Below are positions 14,154 through 39,092 of a stretch of 64,000 bases of DNA, piece by piece (the first letter of the stretch is position 1; each line of letters opens with the position of its first letter). Below the pieces are notes generated by a model. The model was given only the letters and a program-made list of their open reading frames with translations. It was not told the DNA's origin and did no database searches. Position numbers and translations under genes: made by a program. Origin of the DNA: a virus; the IMG/VR virus record IMGVR_UViG_3300034102_002082, positions 65,857 to 129,856 of that record; one strand, written 5' to 3'.

Positions 14154-16772
14154 TTATTCTTCGAAAGTAAAAAATTCCTCGGCATTTGCTAGGTTCTCAT
14201 TAAAAATTTCCCAATTAAGCGCAGAGTATAAGTTCTCTAATTTCTTAAACAACTCTTTATCGAATATCTGGTCTTTGTCAACATAATTAGCGATAAAATC
14301 TATCACCTCTACCGGATCAGTTCCATCAGACTTGAAACCTATTTGATCTAGACCATATGGATTGTCCTTTAGATATACCCATTTCATTTTTGCGCCCTCA
14401 TAAATTGGCTCAACAATATCTCCTAGACCTATGGATTTCAACATATCATTATATGCTAATGTAGCTTTCCCGTTCGCAATTGTTCCTTTTATAAATTTAA
14501 ATGGTTCTCTACCTTCTACGTCATATATAAATAATGGATTTTTCTTTGATCTGTATGTCGCTGGTGCGTTCTTTGCTATTTCTACTACCTGTAGTTTACT
14601 CATATTCTTCTTGAAATCTATGATAGTGTTATCGATATCTTTCTTTGGTTTATATGTTAACATCCCAACTATTATATTTTCCATCAACTCTTTAAATTTA
14701 ATAGGGAAGGATGTTCTGACTATATCTATTCCCTTCGCATCTAATTTGTAATCTAGGTCTTTCTGCTTTTCCATATCATATACCTTATGCATTACGTACT
14801 TTTTCTTAGCTAACCATATCGCACAACTAGCTATGACATCCTCCGCAATTTTTATTCTATGTGATTTGGTATTGAAGAACTTTGGCATCATTACATTGTA
14901 AAATGAGTTTATCGATGATGCGAACATTGCGCAGGTTTTTATCGTATGTGCTTTTGCTGCTACGTGATCTTTTGGGTCGATACCTTCATGCACCATTAAT
15001 GCATAAGCACTTATATAATTACTATCCGTGTCAACATATGTAACATAATCAACGCCAGTCGTATTTACTTTCTTGTTATAAATCGTGTTTACGAAGTTAG
15101 CAGTTGTTTTAATTATGTTCTGACCAGAAATAGTTACAGCCTCTGCGTTTATAAGATTGGAAAATCTCCAAGAATTCAAACCCAAAACTCCGTACAAGCT
15201 ATTGAGTAGAATTTTTTGTACCATCTGTCTAAGATTGTAAAATTGTTCGACTTCTTTATTTTTCTCATCCGATGCTTTTTTCCCTAGTTTTTTGAATTCT
15301 ACACGTTCAGCATACCATTTAACCAATATAGTTTTTAGTAGTCCATCTACATTCAATGTATATAATGCGCCATTAGAAGCAATCGCTAAGTTATTATCTT
15401 CTACGTAGGAATTAAATTCATCAATTTTCATATCGATAGATTCTTGATTATTGAATATATCTACATGTACATTTTGTATATTTCCTTTTGCGTATGCATC
15501 TGTGCTCCACTTACCAACTTGACCAATCAATGTCTCTGGTGAAATATTGAGACTCATAATTGTTGATGGGTATAGAGAATTAATATCGCAACTAAATATC
15601 CAATCATATCTTCCAGGTATTGGTTGTTTTACGTAAGCACCCTCGAAGCCCTTCTCATCATCTTCAGCGTCATCTTCCTCTGGTTCTTCACCCTCGTCAT
15701 ACTCCTTGATATAGGTCGATAATATACTATGTTCTTCCTTCGGTTTATTCGGTGCGACTAAATTATTTTTTCTTAGATACGTTAACAACGCACCTTCCAA
15801 TAATCTAGATGATACCTCGAAATCTTCGTACGCAACATGACCGACATGAGCAAGAGCCATTGCTAATTCGATGAATCTGTTTACTCTATCAATACCTACT
15901 ACAAGGAATACGTCATTGATATTATACTCCACGAATTTTTTAATATCTTTTCGTAGCAAATCACCTAAACTCCCCTCATACTTTAACTTTCTAAGTTTTA
16001 GTTCTTCGTATGCGACGGTATCTAATCGATAATTCGGCAGTCTTTTTATACCAACTGTAAATTTCTTGTATAATACTAAATAATCCAATAGGCTGATACC
16101 AGCGACTGTTATTTTGCCCGTCTTGTCGTCTCTCCTTACGATACCGATTGGTGATAGTTTGTATGCATATGAATCACCTAGAACCTTCTTGATTCTATTG
16201 AACATATACGGTATATCGAATCCGTTGGTATTCCACCCACTGATAATAGTCGGATTTAGTATCTTGTATCTATTTAGGAAGTCGATGAGCAATTCATTCT
16301 CCGTTTTAAACGTAAGAACAATATTATCATCCTCTTCATAACCAGAAACTTCTCCTGATATATCCAGCACCATACATATATACTTCTTGATCGTATAATC
16401 ATATAATGCTATAGCCGTTATCGGTTGTTGAGCGATATCAATCTTTGGGAATCCACCAGCTGTCTCCGTTTCTATATCTAGATATAGAACTCTATGGTTT
16501 TTTGATATTTCGTCAGAATCACCATAACAATCGATCAATACTCTGGTTGCTATTGGTACGTCAGTCTCAAAGTAACCATCGGAACCATAACCAAATCCAC
16601 TAGTTACCCTATCTAGTTTGTCACCAAACATAGATGTATACTTACCATTAGGATTCTTTTTGTATGCGTAAGGTTTGTAATCTGACACAATTAACCCAGC
16701 AACGTCATCCCACAAATAAACTTTACTCTGTCTGGTTATCTTGTTAGTATTTACGTAGATATTTTGATACAT
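14154..16772 (-). CDS. family B DNA polymerase (T4 gp43-like)
   Basis: Exo DIET, GWNTNGFDIPY, YNIND; Pol DINSLYPS, KILLNSLYG, YVDTDS, KKKY. Confidence 0.96.
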   Translation of the reverse strand: MYQNIYVNTNKITRQSKVYLWDDVAGLIVSDYKPYAYKKNPNGKYTSMFGDKLDRVTSGFGYGSDGYFETDVPIATRVLIDCYGDSDEISKNHRVLYLDIETETAGGFPKIDIAQQPITAIALYDYTIKKYICMVLDISGEVSGYEEDDNIVLTFKTENELLIDFLNRYKILNPTIISGWNTNGFDIPYMFNRIKKVLGDSYAYKLSPIGIVRRDDKTGKITVAGISLLDYLVLYKKFTVGIKRLPNYRLDTVAYEELKLRKLKYEGSLGDLLRKDIKKFVEYNINDVFLVVGIDRVNRFIELAMALAHVGHVAYEDFEVSSRLLEGALLTYLRKNNLVAPNKPKEEHSILSTYIKEYDEGEEPEEDDAEDDEKGFEGAYVKQPIPGRYDWIFSCDINSLYPSTIMSLNISPETLIGQVGKWSTDAYAKGNIQNVHVDIFNNQESIDMKIDEFNSYVEDNNLAIASNGALYTLNVDGLLKTILVKWYAERVEFKKLGKKASDEKNKEVEQFYNLRQMVQKILLNSLYGVLGLNSWRFSNLINAEAVTISGQNIIKTTANFVNTIYNKKVNTTGVDYVTYVDTDSNYISAYALMVHEGIDPKDHVAAKAHTIKTCAMFASSINSFYNVMMPKFFNTKSHRIKIAEDVIASCAIWLAKKKYVMHKVYDMEKQKDLDYKLDAKGIDIVRTSFPIKFKELMENIIVGMLTYKPKKDIDNTIIDFKKNMSKLQVVEIAKNAPATYRSKKNPLFIYDVEGREPFKFIKGTIANGKATLAYNDMLKSIGLGDIVEPIYEGAKMKWVYLKDNPYGLDQIGFKSDGTDPVEVIDFIANYVDKDQIFDKELFKKLENLYSALNWEIFNENLANAEEFFTFEE

Positions 16773-23895: not shown

Positions 23896-24867
23896 CTATC
23901 GTGATATGTCAAGTGTATTTTTGATTTCTGTTGCGTACCATCCCTTTGATGGTCCACGCAAAACTCTTCTTCCTACTTTTCCGGCATTTGTCAATAATGT
24001 TGGGTGCTTTATTCCTCTCGATTTACAAAATTCAACTAAATTACCATCAACAAAATACACATTGTCGTTGTTATCTACTATTTTCCATTTTTTTGCTTTT
24101 GGGTTTTTGCTTCCCTTAAATCTACCCAATTCCTTTAATTTATTTGATATATGAATTTTTTCTTCGGTTGTACATTTTCTTCCAAGAGTCGGGTGACCAT
24201 TTTTAGCAAATGCTTCTCGTAACTTTCTTTTATGTTCCTCCGAAGAATTTCGTTTTATGATTTTATTTGTGTGTTCCGCTCTCTCTGCTTCCGATAATGT
24301 TGCATACCAGTTCTTTACTTTCTCAGAATGTAACTTTTTTTGTTCATCTGTCCACTTTTTTCCAAACATTGCATTTTTATCTCCGATATGGGATAGTCTT
24401 TGTAATTCTAGATGTTCCGGTGTTCGTTTATAATAATGTGCTGGATGTAGTTCCCCTTTTAGTCCGTACATACTATTTTTTTCTCCTGATGTGTCTGGTC
24501 TAAAGTCCCCACCATCTGTTAGATTAGTTAACGGACCCATATTTAAATCTCGTCTTCCTATTTTCGATATAAGCTCAATCTCTATACGTTTTGACTCATC
24601 TACTGTCAAATTCTCGTGGATTTTTATTATTATCGGATCGACGCCATATGAAAGGATGCTTTTTATTCTATAGAACTTATGAAAGTTTCCTGTTCTTATT
24701 GATTTTTTTCTCTGTGCTTCTACTAGATGGTCTTTATATCTATTTCTTTTTCCTATACCAACATAAAATGGCTCATATTGGTATTTTAAATCTTGATATT
24801 CGAAATTTCCTGTTTTTGTCGGATCGAAATAAATATAAACGTAATTGATATTGTCATTAATTGTCAT
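23896..24867 (-). CDS. GIY-YIG-type homing endonuclease with NUMOD3 repeats
   Basis: YVYIY...PFYVGIG...R, NLTDGG, repeated GEKNSMYG / GDKNAMFGKK. Confidence 0.85.
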   Translation of the reverse strand: MTINDNINYVYIYFDPTKTGNFEYQDLKYQYEPFYVGIGKRNRYKDHLVEAQRKKSIRTGNFHKFYRIKSILSYGVDPIIIKIHENLTVDESKRIEIELISKIGRRDLNMGPLTNLTDGGDFRPDTSGEKNSMYGLKGELHPAHYYKRTPEHLELQRLSHIGDKNAMFGKKWTDEQKKLHSEKVKNWYATLSEAERAEHTNKIIKRNSSEEHKRKLREAFAKNGHPTLGRKCTTEEKIHISNKLKELGRFKGSKNPKAKKWKIVDNNDNVYFVDGNLVEFCKSRGIKHPTLLTNAGKVGRRVLRGPSKGWYATEIKNTLDISR

Positions 24868-24899: not shown

Positions 24900-25346
24900 T
24901 CAATAATTTTTTAAAAATGGTATTAACATATCCATTAAATGTTTATGTTCATGTACAACCATATCGGTTGATAGGTCATAAGTACTTTCCCATTTTACGG
25001 ATTCGATATCGTCATTTGCTACTGGCTCTCCTCCTTTATATTTGCATAGATAAAATATTGTCTTTATGCAATCTTGTGTATTTCGATATCTTTCATCGTC
25101 GATTTTAGCAGTACCCAAATAAATCAAATCTGAAGTAGTTACGATTAATCCTGTCTCTTCTTCTAACTCTCGTACTGCGTCGGCTTCGAACGAGTCATTT
25201 TTTGGATCAGAAAATCCACCAACGAACCTATATAAATTTTGTTTTGGTTTTTTTGCTAGAAGTACTCTATTAAGGACATGATCATAGACGGCGATATCTA
25301 CGGTAGTAAAACAAGTTGGGTATTTAAAAATTTTAGTATTTTCCAT
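24900..25346 (-). CDS. Nudix hydrolase (ADP-ribose pyrophosphatase-like)
   Basis: Nudix box GGF...EADAVRELEEETGL; TVDIAV and ANDD as in NadM-type Nudix domains. Confidence 0.88.
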   Translation of the reverse strand: MENTKIFKYPTCFTTVDIAVYDHVLNRVLLAKKPKQNLYRFVGGFSDPKNDSFEADAVRELEEETGLIVTTSDLIYLGTAKIDDERYRNTQDCIKTIFYLCKYKGGEPVANDDIESVKWESTYDLSTDMVVHEHKHLMDMLIPFLKNY

Positions 25347-25376
25347 ACACCAACGTTACCAGTAAAAGTAAAATTG

Positions 25377-27155
25377 TCAAGAAACTTTTTTATTCCGCAA
25401 TATTTTGTTGGTGATTGTTTTCGAAACTGTTATAATTTCTTTAACGTCTATGAAATTAGAATCCTTCCCATACATCATAGAAAAAGCTAGTCTTTCTGCA
25501 TTATCTTCCCCTATATAATAACACAACGAGAGTAAATTCTTATCTCGTTGCATTCTGGTAAAATATTGTTTCGTCTTTGCTATTGCTTGTGCTCCACAAA
25601 AATTAATTCCAGTTTTTTGGAAATATGGCATACCATCAGAAAAATTTATAAAAATAGAATCTAATTCGTGATTTGATTCCGGTATTACCGATGATATTAA
25701 TGGGAATAATAATCCTTCGGGTGTACCCCCACCTGGATGTAATAGAGGGAATAAAGAGTAAACTTTATTGAACTTGTCTTTTCTACTATCGTATGCGATA
25801 ACTAAACACGGATAATTATCATCCCTCTTTATCGTGGTTCTAAAACTAATTACGACTTCTACATTTTCCGTTACCGATGTTGCTTTCGCTATCGCTACCG
25901 CACATATGATTGAATTTTTCCATTTCCCATAATCATTTTCACTCATAGATCCACTGGCGTCTATTGATATATGGATATGACATTTTTTGTAAGATTCTGT
26001 TTTTGATCTGGTGAATATCCTATCATTCCCAGTTCCGACAGAAAATAACAACCTCTTATCTATTTTTCCGGATACCTGTCTATTGGTCAATGTTTTATTG
26101 ATTTCCCCTCGTATTTTCCATTTGCTTGCCAATATTTTTCCCAAAACTATTCCGCTATTAACGGATTCTATTCCTATGTTTCCTTTCGAGAAACTAGAAT
26201 ATTTTGCGATAGGCAAATCCAATGATGATAAATTTCCAGCATTTATATTTTTTATTAGTATGCATTTTATGTCATTTTCTAATTTAAATTCATCTGAATA
26301 TTTCGATTCCTTTTGTTGTGGTTCTTTATCTGTTGGTTGTTTATCTTCTCCATCTTCTAGTTTTTCGTAATTACCCTCGACCCATTCTTCACACTTATTT
26401 AGTATATCGCCACTATCTCCACCATTACTTTTAGATTCAGATTCTATTTTTTCTATATTTCGTAATAGTATCAATAATATATTTTTGGCTACGTCCAAAC
26501 GATCTATCGGTTTTATTAGTCTATTTATATTATCCAAATCCAATTCATTGTAAATTTCTTCTAGCCCATTCAACGCGGATAAGTCGGTAGATTTGTTGGT
26601 TAGATTTATTATTCTGAACATGTATGAATCTATCGATTCATCACGGAATTCGTTTGAACTTAGTGTCATTCCTATTTTTTTATTATTCCAGAATCTGTTA
26701 TATAAATCTACGTAATATCCTCGATATCCTATAAACTTATCATACGCCCAATTATCTATAAACCTATCTTCAACATAATTCAGTAATTTTTTATATATCT
26801 TAGAAATTTCCCCAATATCTATTTTCTTCTCTTTTGCTATTTGTGATGCTTCTTTTGGTATTTTCATCCATAAGGTCTTGAATATATCAAAATTCGTATG
26901 GAGAATATGACAAGATTCATGTAAGATTATACCTACTGTAGAATCCAAACTATCAACACTAAAATCCTCGTCTATCCATATACTTTTACCATCAGTATAA
27001 TTTTTCTCTCCCTTGAATTGGACGGGTATTTCTTTTTCCGTTATTATCTTTACGAAGTTTTTTATCGCTGATCGATATAGTTCTCTACGATTTTCAATGG
27101 GTATATCTTCATTAAATATCTCATCACTTATCCAGAAATTTGTTTCCGAATTCAT
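25377..27155 (-). CDS. CobT-like protein: N-terminal HEXXH domain plus C-terminal VWA
   Basis: YTDGK, LHESCH, NYVEDRFID; MIDAS DASGSM, GGTPEG, FSDG. Confidence 0.85.
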   Translation of the reverse strand: MNSETNFWISDEIFNEDIPIENRRELYRSAIKNFVKIITEKEIPVQFKGEKNYTDGKSIWIDEDFSVDSLDSTVGIILHESCHILHTNFDIFKTLWMKIPKEASQIAKEKKIDIGEISKIYKKLLNYVEDRFIDNWAYDKFIGYRGYYVDLYNRFWNNKKIGMTLSSNEFRDESIDSYMFRIINLTNKSTDLSALNGLEEIYNELDLDNINRLIKPIDRLDVAKNILLILLRNIEKIESESKSNGGDSGDILNKCEEWVEGNYEKLEDGEDKQPTDKEPQQKESKYSDEFKLENDIKCILIKNINAGNLSSLDLPIAKYSSFSKGNIGIESVNSGIVLGKILASKWKIRGEINKTLTNRQVSGKIDKRLLFSVGTGNDRIFTRSKTESYKKCHIHISIDASGSMSENDYGKWKNSIICAVAIAKATSVTENVEVVISFRTTIKRDDNYPCLVIAYDSRKDKFNKVYSLFPLLHPGGGTPEGLLFPLISSVIPESNHELDSIFINFSDGMPYFQKTGINFCGAQAIAKTKQYFTRMQRDKNLLSLCYYIGEDNAERLAFSMMYGKDSNFIDVKEIITVSKTITNKILRNKKVS

Positions 27156-27156
27156 T

Positions 27157-27894
27157 TTAAAATAACTTTTTAGGTAACTTTTTTCCGCTTACATATTTCT
27201 GACAAAGTTGTTTTATAAAAGTTCTTTCGCTAGTATCACCACCATCACCCGAGAAAGTTGAATAAACTACGTTTTCCAATACTTCACTCACAGAGAATCC
27301 ATCGTCTAACATCTCACCCATTTCTACGGATGTTCTCGTTGATATGTAGCTAGTTATTCTAGAGTCTGGTTTTTTAAATTCTGCGCGTATTTCATAGCTA
27401 ATTTGTGATATGCATTTTATATCTTCTTTATCTAAATCGGGATATTTAGAGAATAGTAAATCATACTCTTCTTCAGCATCCAAGGTTTCAATCTCAATCT
27501 TTACTGGAAATCTATCCATTAATGCTCTATCCATTATTCTGGTAGATGTGTATTCAGTTCCTATATTCGCCGTACTGATAAATGATACACCTTCAGCTAC
27601 TTTTACCAATTCGGAATCTTCCTTTTCATCCAATCGAACGCATCTTTGGATTGGATCTAGTATAGGAAGAATTATATTCCAACCATCTGGATGGCATCTG
27701 CTCAATTCATCAAGCAATATTACTGCTCCTTCTGTTCGTATAGCCCGTATGAATGCAGACTCGTTAAATAGGGTTCCTTGGTCTTTAACAAGGTGAGTGT
27801 TACCAATCAGTACCGATCTAGGGTCTTGAGTACTTCCTAAGTTTACACACATTAGATTTTTTTTTATTTTATATCGTATTTTAAATTTTTTCAT
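27157..27894 (-). CDS. MoxR/CobS-type AAA+ ATPase, C-terminal fragment
   Basis: NLGSTQDPR, Walker B ILLDELSR, TANIG, DRALMDRF, ISTR; no Walker A; start MKKFKIRYK at 27894. Confidence 0.88.
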   Translation of the reverse strand: MKKFKIRYKIKKNLMCVNLGSTQDPRSVLIGNTHLVKDQGTLFNESAFIRAIRTEGAVILLDELSRCHPDGWNIILPILDPIQRCVRLDEKEDSELVKVAEGVSFISTANIGTEYTSTRIMDRALMDRFPVKIEIETLDAEEEYDLLFSKYPDLDKEDIKCISQISYEIRAEFKKPDSRITSYISTRTSVEMGEMLDDGFSVSEVLENVVYSTFSGDGGDTSERTFIKQLCQKYVSGKKLPKKLF

Positions 27895-27912
27895 TATATT
27901 TATATAAATATA
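27895..27912. promoter_or_regulatory. palindromic bidirectional late-type promoter
   Basis: Perfect 18-bp palindrome TATATTTATATAAATATA carrying ATATTTAT on both strands, between divergent starts at 27894 and 27927. Confidence 0.65.
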
Positions 27913-27926
27913 GACTAGGAACGAAA

Positions 27927-28676
27927 ATGACACAATATATTATTTACGCTTTATTAGATACCTCTAGACCTATTAATTTGACGTTAGGTGAATTCATATT
28001 TGATTATGTTCCTATCTACATAGGAAGAGGAATTAGATTATCTAGACCATACACACATATTAGACGAGCATTAAATGGTGATACGAGAACAAAAATTAGA
28101 GCAAAGGTAAAGCAATTGGTAGACAGTGGTGTGGAAGTAAGACCCGTGTGTTTAAAAACCCAATTAAATAAAAAAGCCGCAGATGATATTGAAGTTGACT
28201 TAATATTTAAACTTAAAAGAGTAAATGAAGGTGGTACTTTATATAACGTATGTGACGGTGGGGATGGTGGTGACACATTTACAAATAATATAAATAAAGA
28301 AGAGATTAGAAAGAAACTTATGGGGAGAATGCCATGGAACAAGGGACTGACAAAAAATACAGACGACGTTGTTCGTTCCGTATCAATAAAGAATAAGAAT
28401 AATTTAATAAATGGGAATCTGGTTGCGCCATCGTTTAAGGGAAGAAAACATTCACAAGAAACAATAGATAAGTTGAGTAATATGCGAATTGGTGTAAAAT
28501 TAGGAAAATATAAACCACGAGTAAGTCTTAAGAAATATATTTTAACATCTCCCACTGGAGAGACTATAATATCAAATGGACAAAAAGAATTTTATAATTT
28601 ACTTACTAATATGAATTTAAGTATATATAAATTAAAACTTGGTAAGCATGTCGGTTGGACATTAACTACCAACTAA
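27927..28676 (+). CDS. GIY-YIG-type homing endonuclease, antisense inside the AAA+ gene
   Basis: YIIYAL...IYIGRG...R, LYNVCDGGDGG, PWNKG, FKGRKHSQETIDK (NUMOD3). Confidence 0.85.
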   Translation: MTQYIIYALLDTSRPINLTLGEFIFDYVPIYIGRGIRLSRPYTHIRRALNGDTRTKIRAKVKQLVDSGVEVRPVCLKTQLNKKAADDIEVDLIFKLKRVNEGGTLYNVCDGGDGGDTFTNNINKEEIRKKLMGRMPWNKGLTKNTDDVVRSVSIKNKNNLINGNLVAPSFKGRKHSQETIDKLSNMRIGVKLGKYKPRVSLKKYILTSPTGETIISNGQKEFYNLLTNMNLSIYKLKLGKHVGWTLTTN

Positions 28677-28921
28677 ATTTCTGTTTCTTCTATTATTTCT
28701 ATCGATTTATCTAATTTCATTTTCATAAGTTCATCTTCAGTAACTATCTTCTCGTGAATTATATTACTGATAGCTTCCGCCGCTTTTATCGCTGCTAATG
28801 TTTTTCCAGATCCACTCATCCCATATAATAATACATTTTTTCCTTTATTGATTGCCCAAATAAGGTATTTCCAGTGTGCCTCATTTATTTTTAGATCTTT
28901 TGGTATCGGTGGAATTTTCAT
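28673..28921 (-). CDS. MoxR/CobS-type AAA+ ATPase, N-terminal fragment
   Basis: WKYLIWAINKGKNVLLYGMSGSGKT (Walker A), then a 30-aa non-AAA tail. Confidence 0.85.
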   Translation of the reverse strand: MKIPPIPKDLKINEAHWKYLIWAINKGKNVLLYGMSGSGKTLAAIKAAEAISNIIHEKIVTEDELMKMKLDKSIEIIEETEI

Positions 28922-28938
28922 ATATAGTGTATAAATAT

Positions 28939-28972
28939 AAAACCCGCTCCTTTTGAGAGCGGGTTTCTTTTT
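28939..28972. terminator. intrinsic terminator
   Basis: AAACCCGCTC-loop-GAGCGGGTTT with flanking A/T runs. Confidence 0.8.
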
Positions 28973-28986
28973 GTTTGGTTTATATG

Positions 28987-29231
28987 TTATTTAAATATTG
29001 AATCTAACGTGTTTATAAAATCTAAAATATCATTCTTAAATTGATTTTCTCTGGTCTTGTCAACTTCTAATTCGTCTAGATAATTCTTTAGCATTGGCGA
29101 TACTGTTTCCTTATTAAACTTTAACATGTATGGAACATATTGTTTATACTTTTGGTGTGATTTATATGATATGATCTTTTTATTTAGATAATCTAGTAAT
29201 TGATTAACTGATTTTCATCTTCTAGTAACAT
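28987..29231 (-). pseudogene. small ORF with a one-base frameshift near its 5' end
   Basis: MLLEDE in one frame, continuing KSVNQLLDYLNKK...LDSIFK in another; span 245 nt = 3n+2. Confidence 0.45.
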
Positions 29232-29232
29232 A

Positions 29233-31071
29233 TTAAATGTGTCCCTTACTTTTCGCATATTCTTTCATTTCTTTTGTTATATCTCTACCTCTCTGCATTA
29301 TTTTATCCATTTCATTGCCTCTACTATCCTCATTTATTCTCGAATTGAAACGACGCATCGGTTTATTTTTTGTCTCATTTTCTAGAGTATCATCAATTTT
29401 TCTTAATTGTTTTTCTGTGAGTTCAATTATCGGATTTACTGTTTCAATATCATCCTTTATTATTGGGTACCACTTATCCTGTATTTTTACGTTTATATTA
29501 TGTACTTCGAAACCAAATTCTTTTTGTGTACCAAATGCATGGTCAAAAGAATCATTCGTTATTTCTCCGTCTCCATTATATTCGATTTCATATTCATCGA
29601 ACGTTGGAAATACTAATTTTAATTTGTCTACTTGTTCGTCTGTTAATTCTATGTATTTTTGATTATTTGCTTCGTTGATCTCTTTTTTAGTATCAACACC
29701 ACCGTCTGTAGAATTACCGGATGATGGATTTCCATATTTTTCTTCTAGATCTTCATACATCATTTTAGCGAAGTCATCATCTTCTGTTTCTATTCCGCGA
29801 GATAGTCTGGATGGTTTATATGGAGAACTACTTAAAACTGAATATAAGTTACTTGCTTGGCCGTTATAATAATGAGTAGCAAACCAGTATATAGCGACCT
29901 CTGCGGAATCTTGTTCGTATCCGAGTCCAGCATATCTCGCCTTTAAGAATTTCACCATTTCTTCTTTTGTCGGATCATCTATTCTCCATGATGATTCTTT
30001 GATGTTTTTATTCTCACCAAATCCAGCAAACGGAGAATTTTTAAGTTCCAATGCAGATTTTATTGCTGAATTTATATCCGAGAAGTAAAGTGTTTTTGCT
30101 CGTTCGTCGTTAATTCGTTCATTATCAAAAAACTGCTCTACTGCTATTTTATTTTTCTGTTTGTCTTTGCGTACTTGTATGGTCATCGATCCATCATAAT
30201 ATTCTGCATACCCGTACTCTATCTTAAATCCTTTGCTCTCTAATGGTTTTAAGCTGTTTACGAACGTGTCGTTTATGTTCGGTTCTTGTCGTTGGCTAAA
30301 CGATTCTTTAATTTTTTTACTGGCAGTTTCTTTTAACATCTCACGGATGCTTTTCTTGATTTCTTCCTTCAATGCTTTCATTTTAGAAGTACCATCCATT
30401 TTCTGTGTTAATTTTTCTTCCGAATTATTTTTCTTATCGGATTTTAATTTAACCTTATCTTTGGATTTGATATCTACTTGCTTCTCAAATTTTGTAGAAT
30501 CCTTCATACCAGCAGTTCCTTTTACTACTTCTTCTATATCACGATCTTTAACATCAACTGGCTTATGATCAATTTGCTTTTTTAGTTTCTTTCCGTCAGC
30601 TTCCTTTGATTGATCCGCATCTTTTTCGCTCTTCTCTTCTACTTTCTTTTCCTCTTTTTCTGGAATTGCACTCTTCTTATATGCCTTTTCTGTATAAGAT
30701 GAACCTTCTTTTCTTCCCTTTAATGTCTCTTTTATCAATTTCTCAATATTTTCGAATTTTGTAGCAGTTAACGAAAGTCTCTCTGATCCATCTAACATAG
30801 CTACTACATTGAATAAATCACCATTACGTGTAACTTCTATAGTAAATTTCTTTCCAGCATCACTATCAACTATTTTAATTTTGCCATTTTCTTGATTAAA
30901 AATAACCTTGGCGTCAGAATCGACGCTCTCTATACATTTTTCTAACTTTTTTACCAATTCTACAGGCTCAGGATTAACCTTAGATGCCTTTGCTGCGTCC
31001 ATTGTTATTTCTTGTAGGACTAATGGGCGAAGTATTTCTTTTAACTTTTCTTTGAGAATTGATTTTTTCAT
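29233..31071 (-). CDS. Lys/Glu-rich multidomain protein, probable internal virion protein
   Basis: Repeated L/I-x-E linkers (ILKE, VLQE, LKEE, IRE, IKES, INEA, INED); late-type motif upstream. Confidence 0.55.
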   Translation of the reverse strand: MKKSILKEKLKEILRPLVLQEITMDAAKASKVNPEPVELVKKLEKCIESVDSDAKVIFNQENGKIKIVDSDAGKKFTIEVTRNGDLFNVVAMLDGSERLSLTATKFENIEKLIKETLKGRKEGSSYTEKAYKKSAIPEKEEKKVEEKSEKDADQSKEADGKKLKKQIDHKPVDVKDRDIEEVVKGTAGMKDSTKFEKQVDIKSKDKVKLKSDKKNNSEEKLTQKMDGTSKMKALKEEIKKSIREMLKETASKKIKESFSQRQEPNINDTFVNSLKPLESKGFKIEYGYAEYYDGSMTIQVRKDKQKNKIAVEQFFDNERINDERAKTLYFSDINSAIKSALELKNSPFAGFGENKNIKESSWRIDDPTKEEMVKFLKARYAGLGYEQDSAEVAIYWFATHYYNGQASNLYSVLSSSPYKPSRLSRGIETEDDDFAKMMYEDLEEKYGNPSSGNSTDGGVDTKKEINEANNQKYIELTDEQVDKLKLVFPTFDEYEIEYNGDGEITNDSFDHAFGTQKEFGFEVHNINVKIQDKWYPIIKDDIETVNPIIELTEKQLRKIDDTLENETKNKPMRRFNSRINEDSRGNEMDKIMQRGRDITKEMKEYAKSKGHI

Positions 31072-31109: not shown

Positions 31110-31262
31110 TTACTTTTTTCTGGTCAAAATTTGTTCTATGTACGGAACGCATAATTTACATTTCGTCGCACATATCTTTAATTTCTGTAACTCCTCAACG
31201 GAGGCAGCTTGTTTTACTGCCTCCGTTAGAGAAATGTTATGACATATACACTTGATGTCCAT
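31110..31262 (-). CDS. BFD-like [2Fe-2S] ferredoxin (50 aa)
   Basis: Manual translation MDIKCICHNISLTEAVKQAASVEELQKLKICATKCKLCVPYIEQILTRKK: CxC ... CxxCxP. Confidence 0.75.
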   Translation of the reverse strand: MDIKCICHNISLTEAVKQAASVEELQKLKICATKCKLCVPYIEQILTRKK

Positions 31263-32017
31263 CACTTAAAGTTTTCCGCTATCGATTTACAAAAGTCAAT
31301 AAATTCAAGTTGGGTGAATTTATTTTTCATTATATTTACTTTACTATGAACCCATTGCACATTTCCTTCTATATAACCAATAGATGAATCTATACGATCA
31401 AGTGAAGCAGTTGATGGTGATGTATTTGACTCTGGGAAATATATGTCTCTTCCACTAAGGGCACATTTTTTATTTTGTAATATATATAAATCCCACACGT
31501 ATTCAATCGTTATGGAAAATTCCATCTTTCTTTTTCTTGCTCCATTCTTTATATTATTCCAGAAATCTCCAGAAATTTTTCCAACTCCTGTCCATTGTAT
31601 ATGTTTATCACCTTTGCTTCTATTGGTGAATGACTTAGTATTTCCTCTCAACAAATGGGTAGACGCTACAATTTTTTCAATACCTGTGTCTTTTTCTTTA
31701 CAAAACCACATGGTATGTCCACTATTAGTTGTTGGTGCCCTACGTAAAACCAATAGATGACCAAATTCTGAACCAGATAGATCTTTGAATCTATCTGATT
31801 CTATTTTTAGCCCATCGAAATTAATATTTAGCTCAACCATTCTAGCAAATAATAATCTTCTCTTGTTATTTTCGTTTTTGATATTTAATTTTACCAGAAT
31901 ATTTCCTATATACTCACATTCTGGTAAAATTTTTTCTATATCATTTTTAGATAAACTCCTTATTTTGTCACAAGGAGTTACATCTACCAAGTTTCTTTTA
32001 TATCCTCTGTACTTCAT
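31262..32017 (-). CDS. HNH/Endo VII-like homing endonuclease
   Basis: KDLSGSEFGHLLVL, QNKKCALSG, ASLDRIDSSIGYIEGNVQWVHSKVNIMK; likely start at 32017. Confidence 0.8.
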   Translation of the reverse strand: MKYRGYKRNLVDVTPCDKIRSLSKNDIEKILPECEYIGNILVKLNIKNENNKRRLLFARMVELNINFDGLKIESDRFKDLSGSEFGHLLVLRRAPTTNSGHTMWFCKEKDTGIEKIVASTHLLRGNTKSFTNRSKGDKHIQWTGVGKISGDFWNNIKNGARKRKMEFSITIEYVWDLYILQNKKCALSGRDIYFPESNTSPSTASLDRIDSSIGYIEGNVQWVHSKVNIMKNKFTQLEFIDFCKSIAENFK

Positions 32018-32025
32018 GTTGGTTA

Positions 32026-34359
32026 TCAAGCAAGAGTACATGCCCCACCAGCGCACGCTTGGCCCGCCAAGCTATCTGCATTGACAAATGTTTCGGTGTC
32101 CTCAATTGCCTGTGTCCAGTCAATCTCTTTATATTCTCGTTTTAGATCTAACCATAATTTGAACGAATATACGTGCTTTAAACAATGACACATCTTTCTC
32201 TTGTCACCATTGAAATATCTATCAGCGAACTGTATTGCTCGGCGAACCCAATCCTTTTTCCTGTAACTTGTGTTAAATATATCTTTATCTTGGTAAAAAA
32301 TACTCAACTCAATACCATAATTTACGAGAGCAGAAGAAAATTCTTTCTCCGTCTTATAGTCTTTTCTGCGTGGTTTATTTGGTTGTGTTGGTTCATTGAT
32401 ATCACCATCAAGAACTTCACCGATACCATTTAAAGTATCACATGCTGCCCATAAGTTATTATTAAATATATAAAGACCATCAACGATTAATCCACTAGCA
32501 AGTAAGGCACCTTGACCATATTCTTCTACTAATTCCTTTTCATTAAGTACCGAAGTAAAAGGAGCTTGTGGATAATCTAAATCACCGGAAGCGGATAGAA
32601 GAGAAATACCAGCGAACCATTGTCTATTTGCATAGATATAATCACGAACTTCGTCCCATTCATTATCCTTAACAGTGATAGTGTTAGATACGTTATGTCG
32701 AGTATTTGGTAGCAGACAGAGTTCTTTATTGGTACCAAATTCAACCCAATTTTGTTGTGTTAGTCTAACTTTATTTAGTAGATCAACAGCACCAAGATTA
32801 TTCTTAACTATCGCGCTCTTAGGAACTTCACATAGGAAAGAAATGACATCATCTGTACCATTAGTTGACCATACCGATTTTTCCACTGCTAATGGATTTA
32901 TCTTCTTGAAGTGTTGAACAGGAAATTCATTCTTATTTGCTTGTACTCGACGAATATACCGCTTGGCGTGATGTGGGTGAATTCCGCTAGACGATGATAG
33001 GACGCAACTAGTTGACCCTGCTGGTTTAACGCAAGTAGTTCTTGCTGCTTGATTAATACCTATTAGGGCAGCTATTTTCTTATTTGTTTCGCGAATTAGT
33101 GTTGCTCCTTCTTTTTGTACTTCTGGATCGAGCAGGATATCTGGATTATCCATTATACCGGTTATTGAACAGCCAAGTAACGCTTCTTTTTCTGTTATTT
33201 CTTGTGTTTCTTTGGCTAGATATTTAAACTTAGTATATCCAGCTTGCATTGTCCCGATAATGGCGGATGCTCTGCATGTTTCTAAGAATTTTTCTTTCGT
33301 ATCGCAATATTTTCCGTTGATTTCTGTGAGATTACAAAATTGCCAACCGCTTCTTCCGTCAACAGTTTGTGGGTAAAGTCCGATCTCAACACATGGATTA
33401 TATCCTATGTCTTCGCTATCACTAAATACAAAACCAGGTTCACCGAAAGCACGAGTAGATTCCATAATCTTATCGAATTCTGGTTTAGTTACTTTATCTT
33501 TTATTAGTAATACCGAATTATTTGACCGTCCACGTTGCGGATTTTTAATATACCAATCTCCAGTCTTAGCTGTCATCATTTCTTGGTCTTCCTTAGAAAA
33601 TAAGCAAATGGTAGCTGATCTACGCACACCACCAGAAAGAACCGCATCTGATAGATGCATTATAATATCATAAACATCAATCGGTCTTAATGTTGTATGT
33701 CCACTACCGATTCTGTCTTCTATTAATTCTTCGATCTTTTTTAGTGAATTATTTAATCCAACAGAACCAGGTGCTTTAAATTGATCGGCGATCAATGAGC
33801 CTTCTGGTCTAATTTTTGAGAGATCAAATTCAACAGAATGTCCTTCATATTCGGGAAATACTCCCCCACCAACAAGATATGATGACATAATCGCAGCAAT
33901 ACAATCAGACCATCCTTCTATGCTGTCATCAGCAACAAAGGTTTTTACTCCTTTTACTCTTTTTTGTATATTCGGAAGTTTGGCTACATGTTTTGTTTGT
34001 ACGGAGAATCCTACTCCGCAACCACAAAGAAGTAGATACATGGCTTCATTAAATGCAGCAGCACGATCAATATATCCATATGAACAATTAAAAACTTTGG
34101 CATTGTGCTTAAATATCGGTGCTCCACCGAATTGAAGGATTCTCTGCGCACCCAACACCCTCTTCTTTTTTACCATATCTTTGGCGAAATTAAATTCCTT
34201 TTCAAATTCTGGATTTTTTAGTGCCTCGGAATATTGCTCGGAATGCATTTCGAATACTCGATCTGCCATTTCTGACCATACTTCTCTGCGTTTTTTTTCT
34301 TTATCGTATCTTCCGTAACGACTGAAAATAGTGTAATCTGATAGTGCTTGTAGTGACAT
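32026..34359 (-). CDS. nrdJ: class II (adenosylcobalamin) ribonucleotide reductase, monomeric type
   Basis: FNCSY, CGVGFSV, GGVRRSA, NPCVEI, FCNLTEI, TTCVKPAGS, C-terminal ACAGGAC; no nrdB adjacent. Confidence 0.88.
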   Translation of the reverse strand: MSLQALSDYTIFSRYGRYDKEKKRREVWSEMADRVFEMHSEQYSEALKNPEFEKEFNFAKDMVKKKRVLGAQRILQFGGAPIFKHNAKVFNCSYGYIDRAAAFNEAMYLLLCGCGVGFSVQTKHVAKLPNIQKRVKGVKTFVADDSIEGWSDCIAAIMSSYLVGGGVFPEYEGHSVEFDLSKIRPEGSLIADQFKAPGSVGLNNSLKKIEELIEDRIGSGHTTLRPIDVYDIIMHLSDAVLSGGVRRSATICLFSKEDQEMMTAKTGDWYIKNPQRGRSNNSVLLIKDKVTKPEFDKIMESTRAFGEPGFVFSDSEDIGYNPCVEIGLYPQTVDGRSGWQFCNLTEINGKYCDTKEKFLETCRASAIIGTMQAGYTKFKYLAKETQEITEKEALLGCSITGIMDNPDILLDPEVQKEGATLIRETNKKIAALIGINQAARTTCVKPAGSTSCVLSSSSGIHPHHAKRYIRRVQANKNEFPVQHFKKINPLAVEKSVWSTNGTDDVISFLCEVPKSAIVKNNLGAVDLLNKVRLTQQNWVEFGTNKELCLLPNTRHNVSNTITVKDNEWDEVRDYIYANRQWFAGISLLSASGDLDYPQAPFTSVLNEKELVEEYGQGALLASGLIVDGLYIFNNNLWAACDTLNGIGEVLDGDINEPTQPNKPRRKDYKTEKEFSSALVNYGIELSIFYQDKDIFNTSYRKKDWVRRAIQFADRYFNGDKRKMCHCLKHVYSFKLWLDLKREYKEIDWTQAIEDTETFVNADSLAGQACAGGACTLA

Positions 34360-35936: not shown

Positions 35937-37004
35937 TTATTTTGAATAATAATCCAAAATACCAAAACTTTCTCTGAGCCAATTACTTAACAATGGGAAC
36001 TGATCATGTATTCCATCATAGGTAAACCTCTGTGTTATTTCTATAATATTACATTTTCTAATTTCCATTTCTACTCTAGCAGATATTCCATGTTGGTGAC
36101 ATACGGCAAAATCTGGTTCTCTTAGCTGCATTAATTTGTAATTTCTTTCAACTATTTCCCATTCTGACAGAACATTCTCATATAGTTTGTATTTTCCGGA
36201 GGTGGCCTCCGCATGATCTTTCAAATATTCAACATTTAAAGTTTTCTCTTCCGATATTTGCGGAAAGCATTTTATGACAGTTTTTGCTCCTGCTCCTTTT
36301 ATACCGTCGATATTGTCCGATGTATCACCATCAAGACACCGGAATAGAACGAAGTTATGTGGGTGAATACCGTATTCGGAAACTACTTCGGATACACCAT
36401 ACAACTTCTTTTTTGTTGGACTCCACACACGTACCTGCTTATTTACTAATTGTAGAAAATCTTTATCCGCGCTCATTATCGTTACATTATTTTCTGGTTT
36501 ATTGAAAACTGTAGTAGCCAGATAAGCAATAGTATCGTCCGCTTCAATGTTATCTACTGAGATTAGTGTTATTGGTAAACAATGCAAGTAAGCAATAAAT
36601 TTTGCTAATTGTTCCTTCATGCTCTTCTCTTCCATATCGGGGGTGTTAACCTCGGCATACATCCTATTTACACGAATACGGTTCTTTCTTCCGGATTTAT
36701 AATCTGGATAGATTTGTTTTCTTCTCTTTGATCCACCAGCACCATCAGCGACAACTATACATCTAGTTGGTTTTAATTCTCGTATAGCATATGCCAACGA
36801 CTTTAAGCTACCAACTAGACCACCCGATAGGTTTCCGTTTTCGTTTGTGTTTGGAAATACTGAATAACATCTAATAAAAAGATTGAATAAATCGACTATC
36901 AAAACATCGGAGTTCAATGTTTTTTGTGGTCTATTCATTATTTCATTTTTATCTAAGTTCTCGAACAATGAAAATAATCTTTTTTTGTTAATTGGTTCGT
37001 TCAT
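35937..37004 (-). CDS. 5'-3' exonuclease / RNase H (T4 rnh-like)
   Basis: LIVD, YPDYKSGR, EADD, SADKDFLQL, GDTSDNIDGIKGAGAKT. Confidence 0.92.
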   Translation of the reverse strand: MNEPINKKRLFSLFENLDKNEIMNRPQKTLNSDVLIVDLFNLFIRCYSVFPNTNENGNLSGGLVGSLKSLAYAIRELKPTRCIVVADGAGGSKRRKQIYPDYKSGRKNRIRVNRMYAEVNTPDMEEKSMKEQLAKFIAYLHCLPITLISVDNIEADDTIAYLATTVFNKPENNVTIMSADKDFLQLVNKQVRVWSPTKKKLYGVSEVVSEYGIHPHNFVLFRCLDGDTSDNIDGIKGAGAKTVIKCFPQISEEKTLNVEYLKDHAEATSGKYKLYENVLSEWEIVERNYKLMQLREPDFAVCHQHGISARVEMEIRKCNIIEITQRFTYDGIHDQFPLLSNWLRESFGILDYYSK

Positions 37005-37837
37005 ATTAATTCTCTCTCGACTGCATCTACTCCGATTTCTTTCACTTTGTTTATTAACCATTTTATATCTCTACCAGGTACAGAATCCCACTTCACCTTC
37101 AATATATACCAATTCAATATATTTGACCAACTATAAATTCCAGAAGTACTACCCACAATAAATTGTGATCCTTTAGTATATAGACAAGGATATATGCATT
37201 CGATGATACTACTATTGATAAATTCACATTCGTCTATGAAAATAGTAGAAAAGCTTTTTCCACGGACACTAGAACCTTTAGACGAAACCGATATAAAATC
37301 TATAGAGTTTCCACTGTTAGTGGATATAAACGATCTATTTATCGTTCTAAATATATTTTTATCTACCAATGAACAATTGTCCAACATTTCATATATAATT
37401 TTTCTTATGTTTTCATTGGAATTAAGATTATGAGACATCACGACAATTGATTGCTTTTCTGTGAATAGAAACTTCCAAACCAAGTATGCACATTGGATCG
37501 TAGTAAATCCTACCTGTCTAGGTTTTTTTACGAAAATTCTGCTTTCTTTTTGTGTGTTGTTGATGAAATCCTTTTGCCAATCATATAAAATAAAAGGAAT
37601 ACGACCACTTGATGGAGTGTTTATCGTTATATATTTTTCGATAAAATATATAGGATCTTCTTTACACATATCAATTTCGATTTCTTCCGGTGATGGCTTA
37701 ACTAATGTTAAACCATATTGCGCCATTGATCTTATGCATCCAATTTTTTCTATTAATGATTGATCGAATCTTTTAAGATCGAAGCTATTATCATATATTG
37801 ACTGTAATACTTCTCGTATTTTTTCTTTATTTTCCAT
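37001..37837 (-). CDS. terminase-large-subunit-like ATPase domain only (no nuclease domain)
   Basis: CKEDPIYFIEKY, PFILYDWQK, KPRQVGFTT, VRGKS, IFIDECEF, WDSVPGRD; about 278 aa. Confidence 0.75.
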   Translation of the reverse strand: MENKEKIREVLQSIYDNSFDLKRFDQSLIEKIGCIRSMAQYGLTLVKPSPEEIEIDMCKEDPIYFIEKYITINTPSSGRIPFILYDWQKDFINNTQKESRIFVKKPRQVGFTTIQCAYLVWKFLFTEKQSIVVMSHNLNSNENIRKIIYEMLDNCSLVDKNIFRTINRSFISTNSGNSIDFISVSSKGSSVRGKSFSTIFIDECEFINSSIIECIYPCLYTKGSQFIVGSTSGIYSWSNILNWYILKVKWDSVPGRDIKWLINKVKEIGVDAVERELI

Positions 37838-37841
37838 GGTA

Positions 37842-39092
37842 TTAATCTTCGAAAGTTTCTGAAAATTCTGCATCGTCATTGCCATCTTGACTATCATATA
37901 CAAATATTTTCTTTTTGCATATTTTCATATATAGGAAATCTTTTATTTCTGGTCGATCTTGAAGAAGAGTTAAGAAGTTTTTTCTTTCAAATTGCACAAC
38001 TTCCTTTACTGTTACTAGATCACCTTCTTTTGTGTCGAAAGTCTCATCAGTATAATCGAACTGGAAATTTTTCTCCTTCTTCAATGCTGCTCTTTCCAAT
38101 TCTAATTGGACTTTTGTTTTCTTCTTTCCCGTGCTATCAGTTGTTTCAACTTTTGCGGTTTTGAAAACTTTATATTCTTGTAATCTTTCCAGCCAATTTC
38201 CATAATTGTCGATACCACTTCTGAAATATATATCAAATTCTGCTTTTCTGAATGGTGGCCCCATTCTATTTTTGACTACCTTAGCAATTGTTTTCATACC
38301 TATTGCTTCATTGTCTTTGTTTGTTATTTGTCCACTCTTTTGCAATCTAATTCTTACTGATGCGTGAAATGGTAATGCCTTCCCACCAGGAGTTATCCAC
38401 TTATCACCAAGACCAACGAAACCGATCTTTTCTCTCAACTGATTGGTACAAATAAATAGAATTCTTTGTGTTCCTATCAATCCTGTTATTTTTCTGAATG
38501 CCTTGGATAGCAAGTAAGCTTTTGCTGTACCGAATCCCTCTTTCGCGTATGACTGTTCTTGCTCATCCTTTGTAGTCATTGCGGCAATCGAATCTATTAC
38601 TACTGTTACCAATTGATTCCCATTTCCTTCACGTAGCTTTGCTATTAATTTTTCAATAGAATTAAAAATGTCTTCGACTGTATTAAGAGAAACAACTAAC
38701 AATTCACTTACGTCAACTCCTATAGCAGTTAGGTATTCTTTAGATAATGCGGTTTCTGTATCAAATAATATTGCAGTTCCTCCCTTTCTTTGTGTATCAG
38801 CTAAAGCGTGAGCAACTAGCAATGATTTTCCGCTGGCTTCTTCTCCGGAAATTTCTATAATTCTTCCTACGGGGAGACCACCATTTGGTCTATTGCTTAT
38901 AGCTAAATCTAATTCGGAGTTACCTGTGCTAATCCAGTCAGTTACATTGGATGGATCATCTTCCTTATCTAAGAAAAATGCCACCTTCCCTTGGTCAGTG
39001 ACTGCCTTATTTATAACATCTACCAGTCCTGCTAGTAGATCAGATTTTGACGTTCCGGTTTCTGCCTTAGTTGATTTTGTTGATTTTGCCAT
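37842..39092 (-). CDS. recA: RecA/UvsX recombinase
   Basis: ISTG, GLPVGRIIEISGEEASGKS, DTE, VIDSIAA, NQLR, TPGGKALPFHASVRI, KNR. Confidence 0.95.
   Translation of the reverse strand: MAKSTKSTKAETGTSKSDLLAGLVDVINKAVTDQGKVAFFLDKEDDPSNVTDWISTGNSELDLAISNRPNGGLPVGRIIEISGEEASGKSLLVAHALADTQRKGGTAILFDTETALSKEYLTAIGVDVSELLVVSLNTVEDIFNSIEKLIAKLREGNGNQLVTVVIDSIAAMTTKDEQEQSYAKEGFGTAKAYLLSKAFRKITGLIGTQRILFICTNQLREKIGFVGLGDKWITPGGKALPFHASVRIRLQKSGQITNKDNEAIGMKTIAKVVKNRMGPPFRKAEFDIYFRSGIDNYGNWLERLQEYKVFKTAKVETTDSTGKKKTKVQLELERAALKKEKNFQFDYTDETFDTKEGDLVTVKEVVQFERKNFLTLLQDRPEIKDFLYMKICKKKIFVYDSQDGNDDAEFSETFED

Follow-up and report, generated by a model that had tools for sequence, protein, structure and literature searches.

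The stretch of phage DNA analysed here (the window, 64,000 nucleotides) spans positions 65,857 to 129,856 of the IMG/VR record IMGVR_UViG_3300034102_002082 and carries a gene, predicted to encode an AAA+ ATPase, that is divided between two open reading frames (ORFs) on the minus strand. The Walker A part (N-half) and the Walker B part (C-half) flank a predicted GIY-YIG-type homing endonuclease gene located on the opposite strand. This arrangement had been described in an earlier reading of the DNA letters (the original prediction), and the ORFs lie exactly as it placed them (Table 1); the stop codons of the N-half and of the endonuclease gene share two bases. All columns that are invariant in the family alignments are retained in both halves, which are therefore intact, as had been claimed. 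The complete virus record comprises 129,856 bases, at an estimated completeness of 57%, and its guanine-plus-cytosine (GC) content is 34%. By gene content this uncultured freshwater phage is T4-like (rIIA/rIIB, gp43-type polymerase, clamp loader, gp41-type helicase, UvsX, ribonucleotide reductase, and RNA ligase). The closest cultured relative according to the DNA polymerase is Microcystis phage Mel-JY01, at merely 38.7%, and a megablast search with positions 25000-31000 of the window against cultured phages gave no match.

Sequence comparison and predicted fold indicate that the split gene encodes a NorQ/CbbQ-like, MoxR-class AAA+ ATPase, in agreement with the MoxR/CobS type proposed before. 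The Pfam AAA_5 match of the C-half (1.2e-8, 35.5 bits) was confined to profile positions 39-139, and that of P0008, one of three uninterrupted 288-residue proteins (P0007, P0008, and P0009), covered positions 1-139 of 139 with 51.3 bits (cut-off 22), Walker A and Walker B motifs included. In Foldseek, the uninterrupted homologue matched NorQ (9qh8_A, 2.1e-16, template-modelling (TM) scores 0.79/0.88) and CbbQ2 (6l1q_A, TM 0.78/0.84); by sequence, it matched midasin AAA domains at 4.5e-19 and NorQ at 3.8e-6. The PHROGs database places the ATPase with CobS-like 'porphyrin biosynthesis' proteins (3.4e-21), a label to be taken as annotation only.

Borders of the inserted cassette

A metagenome scan provided the DNA of a single uninterrupted allele, contig L030, which encodes P0008; L031 (51% identity) and L032-L045 (16-residue matches) were left out. 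The alignment of the window with this contig, a check that had been proposed along with the original prediction, set the breakpoint. The first blastn block paired L030 402-1157 with window 27840-27085 at 97.4%, and the second paired L030 155-370 with window 28990-28770 at 80.5%; the foreign segment left between them replaces 31 nucleotides (nt) of L030. The interruption is thus an insertion with fixed borders. No terminal repeats, either direct or inverted, were present at the ends of this cassette. Its GC content was 29%, with values of 25% in the DNA of the N-half extension (the tail) and 16% in the DNA of the C-half extension (the head) plus the promoter region, in comparison with 35-36% in the native halves.

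At the protein level, the insertion removes 11 native residues, corresponding to loop 51-56 and strand 57-61 of P0008, and puts residues 51-82 of the N-half and 1-18 of the C-half in their place. The AlphaFold model of P0008 (mean predicted local distance difference test score (pLDDT) 87.6) shows a helix at 40-50, followed by a loop at 51-56 and a strand at 57-61, and the cut therefore interrupts the AAA+ core at its alpha1-beta2 loop, with Walker A on one side and Walker B on the other. Since the foreign segment takes in strand beta2, this strand must be formed by the final residues of the head. The presence of extra residues on both halves had been correctly anticipated, but their borders had to be corrected to those given here, the head also replacing beta2. 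These residues are not a loop already carried by uninterrupted homologues: at the place of the cut, P0007 and P0008 have merely the six-residue loop MGKKDK, followed by beta2. In the MAFFT alignment, the head appears as native sequence that has diverged and gained an insertion of eight residues.

At the protein level, P0007, P0008, and P0009 are relatives with about 90-99% identity. Identity to the C-half was 94% for P0007 and 88% for P0009, and P0008 differed from it at only one of 228 aligned residues. The gene was contiguous in 20 of 20 IMG/VR loci, at 50-63% identity (locus L023 ends at a contig edge, but past the junction), as well as in locus L002 (336 amino acids, aa) and in the Mel-JY01 homologue L001 (560 aa). 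In addition, the best 120 of 1,933 database relatives (E<=1e-20) were all contiguous proteins of 276-425 aa. The Mel-JY01 ATPase (L001 3023-4705) is extended at its N-terminus by about 270 residues, which the other relatives lack.

The locus was also inspected for elements that could be removed by splicing. A search with Rfam (positions 26500-29500, both strands, E<=1) detected no intron and gave only leader-like matches on the terminator hairpin, and the cassette contains only 179 nt outside the endonuclease ORF. Pfam searches of the ORFs gave no Hint or intein match. Tail and head add up to 50 residues (32 + 18), too few for a Hint fold; the tail does not start with Cys/Ser, and the head does not end with His-Asn followed by Cys/Ser/Thr. 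These results agree with the earlier statement that the locus has neither an intein signature nor room for a group I intron, and they support a split without intron or intein, due to the endonuclease cassette.

Table 1. Features of the split ATPase locus, in window coordinates (TATATTTATA, gene-start motif described in the text)
Feature	Position	Strand	Remarks
Inserted cassette, whole	27841-28769	.	929 bp replacing 31 nt of L030; blastn of L030 against the window
N-half	28673-28921	-	82 aa, Walker A GMSGSGKT; from the ORF list
N-half native part, residues 1-50	28770-28921	-	Helix alpha0, strand beta1, Walker A, helix alpha1; secondary structure of the P0008 model, L030 alignment
N-half acidic tail, residues 51-82, and stop codon	28673-28771	-	Cassette-derived; unalignable with L030
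GIY-YIG-like homing endonuclease gene, free-standing (predicted)	27927-28676	+	249 aa; phrog_314 8.8e-8
Perfect 18-bp palindrome	27895-27912	.	Two divergent TATATTTATA copies, one toward the endonuclease gene, one toward the C-half
C-half	27157-27894	-	245 aa counted from ATG
C-half basic head, residues 1-18	27841-27894	-	Cassette-derived; unalignable with L030
C-half native part, residues 19-245	27157-27840	-	Walker B, sensor and arginine region, lid domain; L030 97.4%
Terminator-like hairpin (28939-28967), then TATATTTATA (28930-28939)	28930-28967	-	8 nt before the N-half ATG; conserved in L030
vWA-like partner gene	25377-27155	-	592 aa, directly downstream; D-x-S-x-S...T...D MIDAS-type motif and HExxH

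The opposite-strand endonuclease gene

Several criteria identify the ORF between the two halves as a predicted GIY-YIG-type endonuclease gene, in line with the original prediction. Apart from its match to phrog_314, its N-terminal domain aligned at 7e-8 with that of a second predicted endonuclease of the window (23896-24867), and eight residues (Y7, Y31, G33, G35, R40, H44, E89, and N107) were invariant across seven sequences. The GIY-YIG catalytic motif set consists of two Tyr motifs, an Arg, a His or Tyr, a Glu, and an Asn. The Pfam scores of the protein itself were below the thresholds (PF22945, 18.4 bits with a cut-off of 27; NUMOD3, 16.1 bits with a cut-off of 20.4). Of the plus-strand ORFs of at least 110 aa in the minus-strand gene block that extends from 11933 to 42470, it is the only one that is not antisense within a longer minus-strand ORF.

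Searches with this endonuclease gave only four weak loci in IMG/VR and nothing meaningful among PDB sequences. Furthermore, tblastn with both endonucleases against L001, L002, and L006-L045 gave nothing at 1e-3, and hence no 'home' site beside uninterrupted genes. The second GIY-YIG endonuclease gene (minus strand, 323 aa) passes the PF22945 threshold (2.8e-10, 40.8 bits) and matches phrog_314 at 3.8e-13. This free-standing gene is flanked by nicotinamide phosphoribosyltransferase and NUDIX genes, both on its own strand, and has the motif ATATTTAT 5 nt before its ATG.

Gene-start motifs at the locus

According to the original prediction, a perfect 18-bp palindrome would supply a late-type promoter motif, TATAAATA, to both the endonuclease gene and the C-half. 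The palindrome was confirmed; however, TATAAATA was only weakly enriched in the window (23 copies vs 14.4, a number reached by 2 of 100 shuffles), and the enriched motif was TATATTTATA, together with the shorter ATATTTAT. We also considered TATAAATA as a T4-type late promoter of the C-half and rejected it, as the motif ends 2 nt before the ATG and, with the geometry of T4 late promoters, transcription would start inside the ORF. Three perfect palindromes of at least 18 bp are present in the window vs 0.7 expected under a first-order model, so that the palindrome alone is hardly beyond chance; the two others, also of 18 bp, are located at 11909-11926 and 16471-16488.

Seven copies of TATATTTATA were found in the window vs 1.2 expected. 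The motif stands 8 nt before the ATG of the N-half and 8 nt before that of the C-half, and the other arm of the palindrome stands 22 nt before the ATG of the endonuclease gene. The copy at the N-half is kept in L030, where it lies 5 nt nearer to the ATG. The shorter ATATTTAT occurs 29 times in the window, and 10 of these copies lie within 30 nt (4-23 nt) upstream of the start of a same-strand ORF, vs 0.4 expected by position. Both endonuclease genes are included among these ten (examples of sites are 3307, 6063, 24873, 31085, 41081, 61085, and 61983). ATATTTAT differs from the TTGACA-type regions that precede many other genes, and it may represent a late or middle promoter of this phage group. 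We read TATATTTATA as a phage-specific, promoter-like gene-start motif, of which the cassette would bring a second copy for the C-half, and we infer that both halves are expressed.

A GTG codon at 27933 was tried as the start of a longer C-half (258 aa) and rejected; it overlaps the start of the endonuclease gene and lacks the motif spacing common to the ATG of the C-half and to the N-half. In a search for RNA pairing between start and stop codon regions at the locus, no duplex stood above shuffled sequences (z from -0.2 to +1.1).

Persistence and mobility of the split allele

Two further split N-halves (P0002 and P0004) were found, and the three N-halves differ in sequence, each being exactly 82 residues long. 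An intact second copy of the endonuclease, P0128, is identical to that of the window at 206 of 249 residues (83%). Both the P0128 and the P0002 contigs are 2,245 bases long, which suggests, without being a proof, that they are one contig. In addition, short contigs identical to the window were present in four further lake-water runs from four studies, at a depth of 2-3.5; one of them (X4 record 21, 27732-27925) crosses the C-side junction, another (X5 record 28, 28683-28833) crosses the N-side junction, and no sequence variants were seen among the matching contigs. Lake samples from different studies and years share this split allele. These data show that the split allele persists in several genotypes and samples.

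Comparison with L030 revealed an uneven divergence of the two exons. Differences in the N exon amount to 32 of 150 bases (21%), with 23 synonymous and 5 non-synonymous codons. In the C exon, differences affect 8 of the first 60 bases (13%) and 12 of the next 624 (1.9%), corresponding to 19 synonymous codons and 1 non-synonymous codon. The raised divergence beside the insert looks like co-conversion of the flanking exon from a diverged donor. Its upstream limit cannot be fixed, L030 being unalignable past the conserved terminator. The N exon of the window is P0009-like at four of the five positions at which it differs from P0008, whereas the N-halves P0002 and P0004 are P0008-like there. Since these affinities differ, the cassette is present in at least two exon backgrounds.

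The acidic tail and the basic head

The charge counts given originally were confirmed: there are 9 D/E residues in the tail, with a net charge of -5 over 30 residues, and 7 K/R residues in the head, with a net charge of +7 over 12, and both peptides are cassette-derived and absent from uninterrupted homologues. A net charge of +7 was observed in 1 of 17,608 12-residue windows of the phage proteins, in 0 of 56 N-termini, and in 49 of 66,544 stop-free windows of the six frames (0.07%). A net charge of -5, as in the tail, occurred in 4.8% of real-protein windows and in 0.7% of open peptides from non-coding frames.

Among genotypes, the tail varies at positions 59 (I/V), 66 (M/E/R), 69 (K/R), and 70 (L/S). 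Between the window and P0002, 2 of 30 tail residues and 43 of 249 endonuclease residues differ, a difference in rate that is not significant (p=0.19). A search for the same adapter pair on other split phage genes had been proposed as a check. For the tail, a search with its 32 residues against 1.84 billion representatives returned its own cluster only, with the low power of so short a query. A search of the phage record with the DNA of tail and head recovered only the locus itself and short chance matches of AT-rich sequence.

Model of the complex

To model the complex, the C-half (alignment A5) was combined with the N-half as a partner (A4). The complex score was 0.69, and the best of three controls scored 0.00. 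Of 157 solved complexes, 116 attained the mark used, as did 2 of 215 mismatched pairs; because our own alignments were used, these counts are approximate. The runs agreed in at least 95% of contacts, and the pLDDT of the partner was at least 85. The pairs with the lowest expected error placed residues 29-33 of the N-half (beta1) between residues 105-108 and 129-133 of the C-half, which is the strand order of AAA+ proteins. The modelled interface included 15 of the 18 head residues (1-14 and 16) and 24 of the 32 tail residues (51-62, 65, 68, and 73-82), with Y8 of the head contacting H56 of the tail at an expected error of 0.6 A. Across the three genotypes, variation affected 1 of the 24 interface residues of the tail, the conservative I59V, vs 3 of the 8 residues outside (p=0.039, a post hoc test on small numbers).

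The placement of head and tail in the interface concerns the part of the model that lacks solved or sequence relatives and is the more informative one; it gives moderate support only to a role of these peptides. Regarding the multimer modelling proposed with the original prediction, the model rebuilds the AAA+ sheet and sets head and tail in the interface, although its core indicates likeness rather than binding. The C-half modelled alone had a pLDDT of 62, with residues 1-45 below 50; its alignment had 11 rows vs 41 for P0008, so that the two models are not comparable and nothing was concluded from them.

Neighbouring genes and other observations in the window

The vWA-like gene directly downstream of the C-half is a conserved neighbour of the ATPase gene in L002 and in the IMG/VR loci. 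In nine of nine aligned relatives, the residues of its metal-ion-dependent adhesion site (MIDAS)-type motif (D399, S401, S403, T478, and D507) and those of an N-terminal HExxH (H79, E80, and H83) are invariant. Pfam matches of this family were weak and none reached threshold (VWA at 0.016 for the L002 homologue; CobT_C at 0.0085 in one of nine members).

Further observations concern other genes. An HNH/endonuclease VII-like ORF (31262-32056, minus strand; phrog_3322, 5.9e-25) shares bases with the ribonucleotide reductase gene (32026-34359) at the 3' end of the latter and would be the third candidate for a mobile nuclease in the window. Two ORFs of the replication module, one for a terminase-large-subunit-like ATPase (37001-37903, minus strand, 300 aa; phrog_5989, 8.8e-33) and one labelled 'exonuclease' (35937-37061, minus strand; phrog_107, 1.5e-38), overlap by 61 nt in different frames. 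Together (35937-37903) they might represent a terminase-like gene that is frameshifted or in two pieces. Finally, the DNA polymerase query matched Synechococcus phage ACG-2014f (KJ019091.1 and others) in two joined pieces, covering two features annotated as 'DNA polymerase' and two as 'hypothetical protein'; the polymerase gene of that phage may be interrupted too.

Discussion

The best explanation of the locus is, on balance, a gene that works as two polypeptides without splicing. A GIY-YIG-type cassette would have been inserted in reversed orientation into the alpha1-beta2 surface loop of the ATPase gene; besides the endonuclease gene and the palindromic pair of gene-start motifs, it would have brought AT-rich flanks. 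Two genes would now stand in place of one. The N-half would provide beta1, Walker A, and alpha1, extended by 32 acidic-tail residues from the cassette. The C-half would start at a cassette-borne ATG behind the same gene-start motif as the N-half, with the 18-residue basic head followed by Walker B and the remainder of the protein. As the model and the known analogues suggest, the two polypeptides most likely reassemble non-covalently into one AAA+ module, which would act with the adjoining vWA-like protein. Head and tail would pair with each other where the loop is cut and increase the affinity, in the way that the element-derived extensions on NrdA-a and NrdA-b do in phage Aeh1. A role of this kind, which the model and the Aeh1 analogy make plausible, is a serious possibility that we stop just short of favouring.

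Several points weigh against this explanation. A split that confines the central strand and the P-loop to a piece of 50 residues is demanding, and the assembly of the two halves is a prediction of the model. The pass of the core part of the complex would be expected from solved AAA+ relatives and would show likeness, not binding, and chain ends that leave the fold at neighbouring points may easily be laid together by the model. The C-half is nearly identical to the uninterrupted allele, so that the cassette is perhaps recent in this backbone and intact halves are weak evidence of selection. Between P0002 and P0004, the tail differs at 3 of 30 residues, two of them radical changes, and the native part at 0 of 52 (p=0.046); the tail is therefore not tightly constrained throughout. 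Long read-through is not rare, since 16.6% of the positions in non-annotated frames are open for at least 30 codons. In the case of the head, a single sequence is known, and its lysine codons form an A-tract whose other strand is the T-rich region just upstream of the start motif of the endonuclease gene. The charge bias could thus be a by-product of A-rich regulatory DNA of the cassette. The docking module of the original prediction, in which the added peptides would reassemble the enzyme non-covalently, stands in part: the cassette-derived peptides do lie in the modelled interface, but their charge may be such a by-product, and radical substitutions are found in the tail.

The main rival, which we consider unlikely, is that the ATPase gene has lost, or is losing, its function: a selfish cassette would sit in a dispensable accessory gene, the halves would be intact by recency, and tail and head would be incidental products of read-through and of a chance ATG. 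The near-identity of the C-half to the uninterrupted allele, the frequency of long read-through, and the radical tail substitutions among genotypes would all fit a dead gene, as would the rarity of the split form (1 N-half cluster vs 1,933 relatives at E<=1e-20, the best 120 being all full-length). However, the endonuclease has diverged at 43 of 249 residues between genotypes, and yet all three N-halves keep their 82 codons and the invariant residues. In addition, the charge of the head is extreme even among random frames, and the start motif of the C-half is the same, at the same distance, as that of the N-half. The recurrence of the same allele in lake samples of several studies and years, and a confident complex model that includes head and tail, also argue against a dead gene.

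A second rival, which we hold to be improbable, accepts that the pieces reassemble into a working ATPase and takes head and tail as idle, their composition reflecting the purine-rich strand of regulatory DNA in the cassette. The low GC content of head, promoter, and tail DNA is consistent with idle peptides, and the palindrome and the T-tract sit where an upstream promoter of the endonuclease gene would be; besides, the tail has no relatives on other proteins, and in Aeh1 the a/b heterodimer itself forms without tails (PMC3045599). On the contrary, most residues of both peptides lie in the modelled interface with low expected error, substitutions avoid the interface residues of the tail, the joint charge pattern is improbable, and deletion of the Aeh1 tails cut activity about 2000-fold (PMC3045599). 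The remaining rival, removal of the interruption as a group I intron from the RNA or as a (split) intein from the protein, is hardly credible: although fractured phage genes are known in which a GIY-YIG gene separates the two halves of a split intein (PMC2677866), all three ORFs of such genes lie on one strand, whereas here the endonuclease gene lies on the opposite strand, and the searches and size limits given above point to neither an intron nor an intein.

If the splice-free, two-polypeptide explanation is confirmed, the locus would show a selfish gene living within a protein core without splicing, and it would offer a small natural peptide pair and a permissive alpha1-beta2 split site for the split-protein design of AAA+ enzymes. 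The near-identical uninterrupted alleles are built-in controls and make the locus a good experimental system. More tentatively, and with some doubt on our part, the cassette might be a self-sufficient 'invade and repair' unit, made up of the endonuclease, a double promoter in the form of a palindrome, by which the downstream half of any gene that it cuts would be restarted, a start codon, and matched peptides that zip the pieces together. The matched peptides would be, just as tentatively, a basic amphipathic strand and an acidic strand-plus-helix. Such a unit, if real, would let a homing endonuclease settle within a globular P-loop core without splicing, and the 'tails' solution of Aeh1 would be a general, portable trait of free-standing endonuclease cassettes.

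Comparison with known systems

A literature search, which covered journals other than subscription ones, found no MoxR/CobS-type gene split by a homing endonuclease. The NorQ/NorD and CbbQ/CbbO pairs of MoxR and vWA proteins (PDB 9qh4, 9qh8, 6l1q) resemble the genes described here in the fold of the uninterrupted homologue (TM 0.78-0.88) and, presumably, in the adjoining vWA-like gene with a MIDAS-type motif, but differ in sequence, with an identity of only about 20%.

In the split-intein fractured genes (Dassa et al. 2009, PMC2677866), an endonuclease gene, often of the GIY-YIG family, also lies between the halves of an enzyme gene, and the interacting strands are oppositely charged. There, however, Hint halves ligate the exteins and the three ORFs lie on one strand, whereas the present locus has no intein and the endonuclease gene has the opposite orientation. 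T4 segD is likewise a free-standing GIY-YIG gene oriented against its neighbours, the one such endonuclease gene of T4, but it is located between genes 23 and 24 and not within a gene (PMC2988022). Gene 43 of Aeromonas phage 25 (43A/seg43(25)/43B) and T4 gene 39/mobA/gene 60 share with our locus intein-less gene pieces with a free-standing endonuclease, of the GIY-YIG family in phage 25 (PMC2988022, PMC2677866, PMC3045599). The halves are said to co-purify and to be active, and gp39 and gp60 are said to bear tail-like extensions with a similar charge distribution (same sources). They differ in their hosts, a DNA polymerase and a topoisomerase, and the passages on them mention no cut of a P-loop domain between Walker A and Walker B.

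The closest parallel is nrdA-a/mobE/nrdA-b of phage Aeh1 (PMC3045599). In that system, the tails are oppositely charged (isoelectric points of 10.4 and 3.8), element-derived, unique, AT-rich, and without database matches. They are essential, as shown by the loss of activity upon deletion (Crona et al. 2011, PMC3045599), although dispensable for the a/b heterodimer and needed at the next assembly step. Crona et al. predict similar tails on other fragmented genes, naming T4 gp39/gp60, and consider charged tails a possibly general means to neutralise gene fragmentation by mobile elements, with one proven case. The idea of the original prediction, reassembly through charged peptides without splicing, is therefore not a new one, since charged, element-derived tails on which the activity of a split enzyme depends had already been demonstrated in NrdA-a/NrdA-b. 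The description of mobE as antisense in that prediction was also wrong, since the three Aeh1 cistrons share one mRNA.

The two systems have in common a free-standing homing endonuclease gene that splits an enzyme gene within a folded domain, between secondary-structure elements and without intron or intein; unique, AT-rich, oppositely charged extensions derived from the element; and a split form that is exceptional among contiguous homologues. They differ in the nuclease, GIY-YIG-like here and HNH in Aeh1, in the reversed charge polarity, with an acidic N piece and a basic C piece here, and in the host enzyme, here a predicted MoxR-class AAA+ ATPase with a tail role that is predicted only. They also differ in orientation, the endonuclease gene being here on the plus strand and the halves on the minus strand, which we treat as a variant and not as a defining feature. 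With the endonuclease gene on the opposite strand, the downstream half cannot be read just as a following cistron, and it has its own copy of the gene-start motif. Altogether, the mechanism is already known from Aeh1, and the locus is a well-supported further case of gene split and a clean natural candidate for a further charged-tail case, with an enzyme class, a nuclease family, and an orientation that differ from those of Aeh1, and with a cut between Walker A and Walker B.

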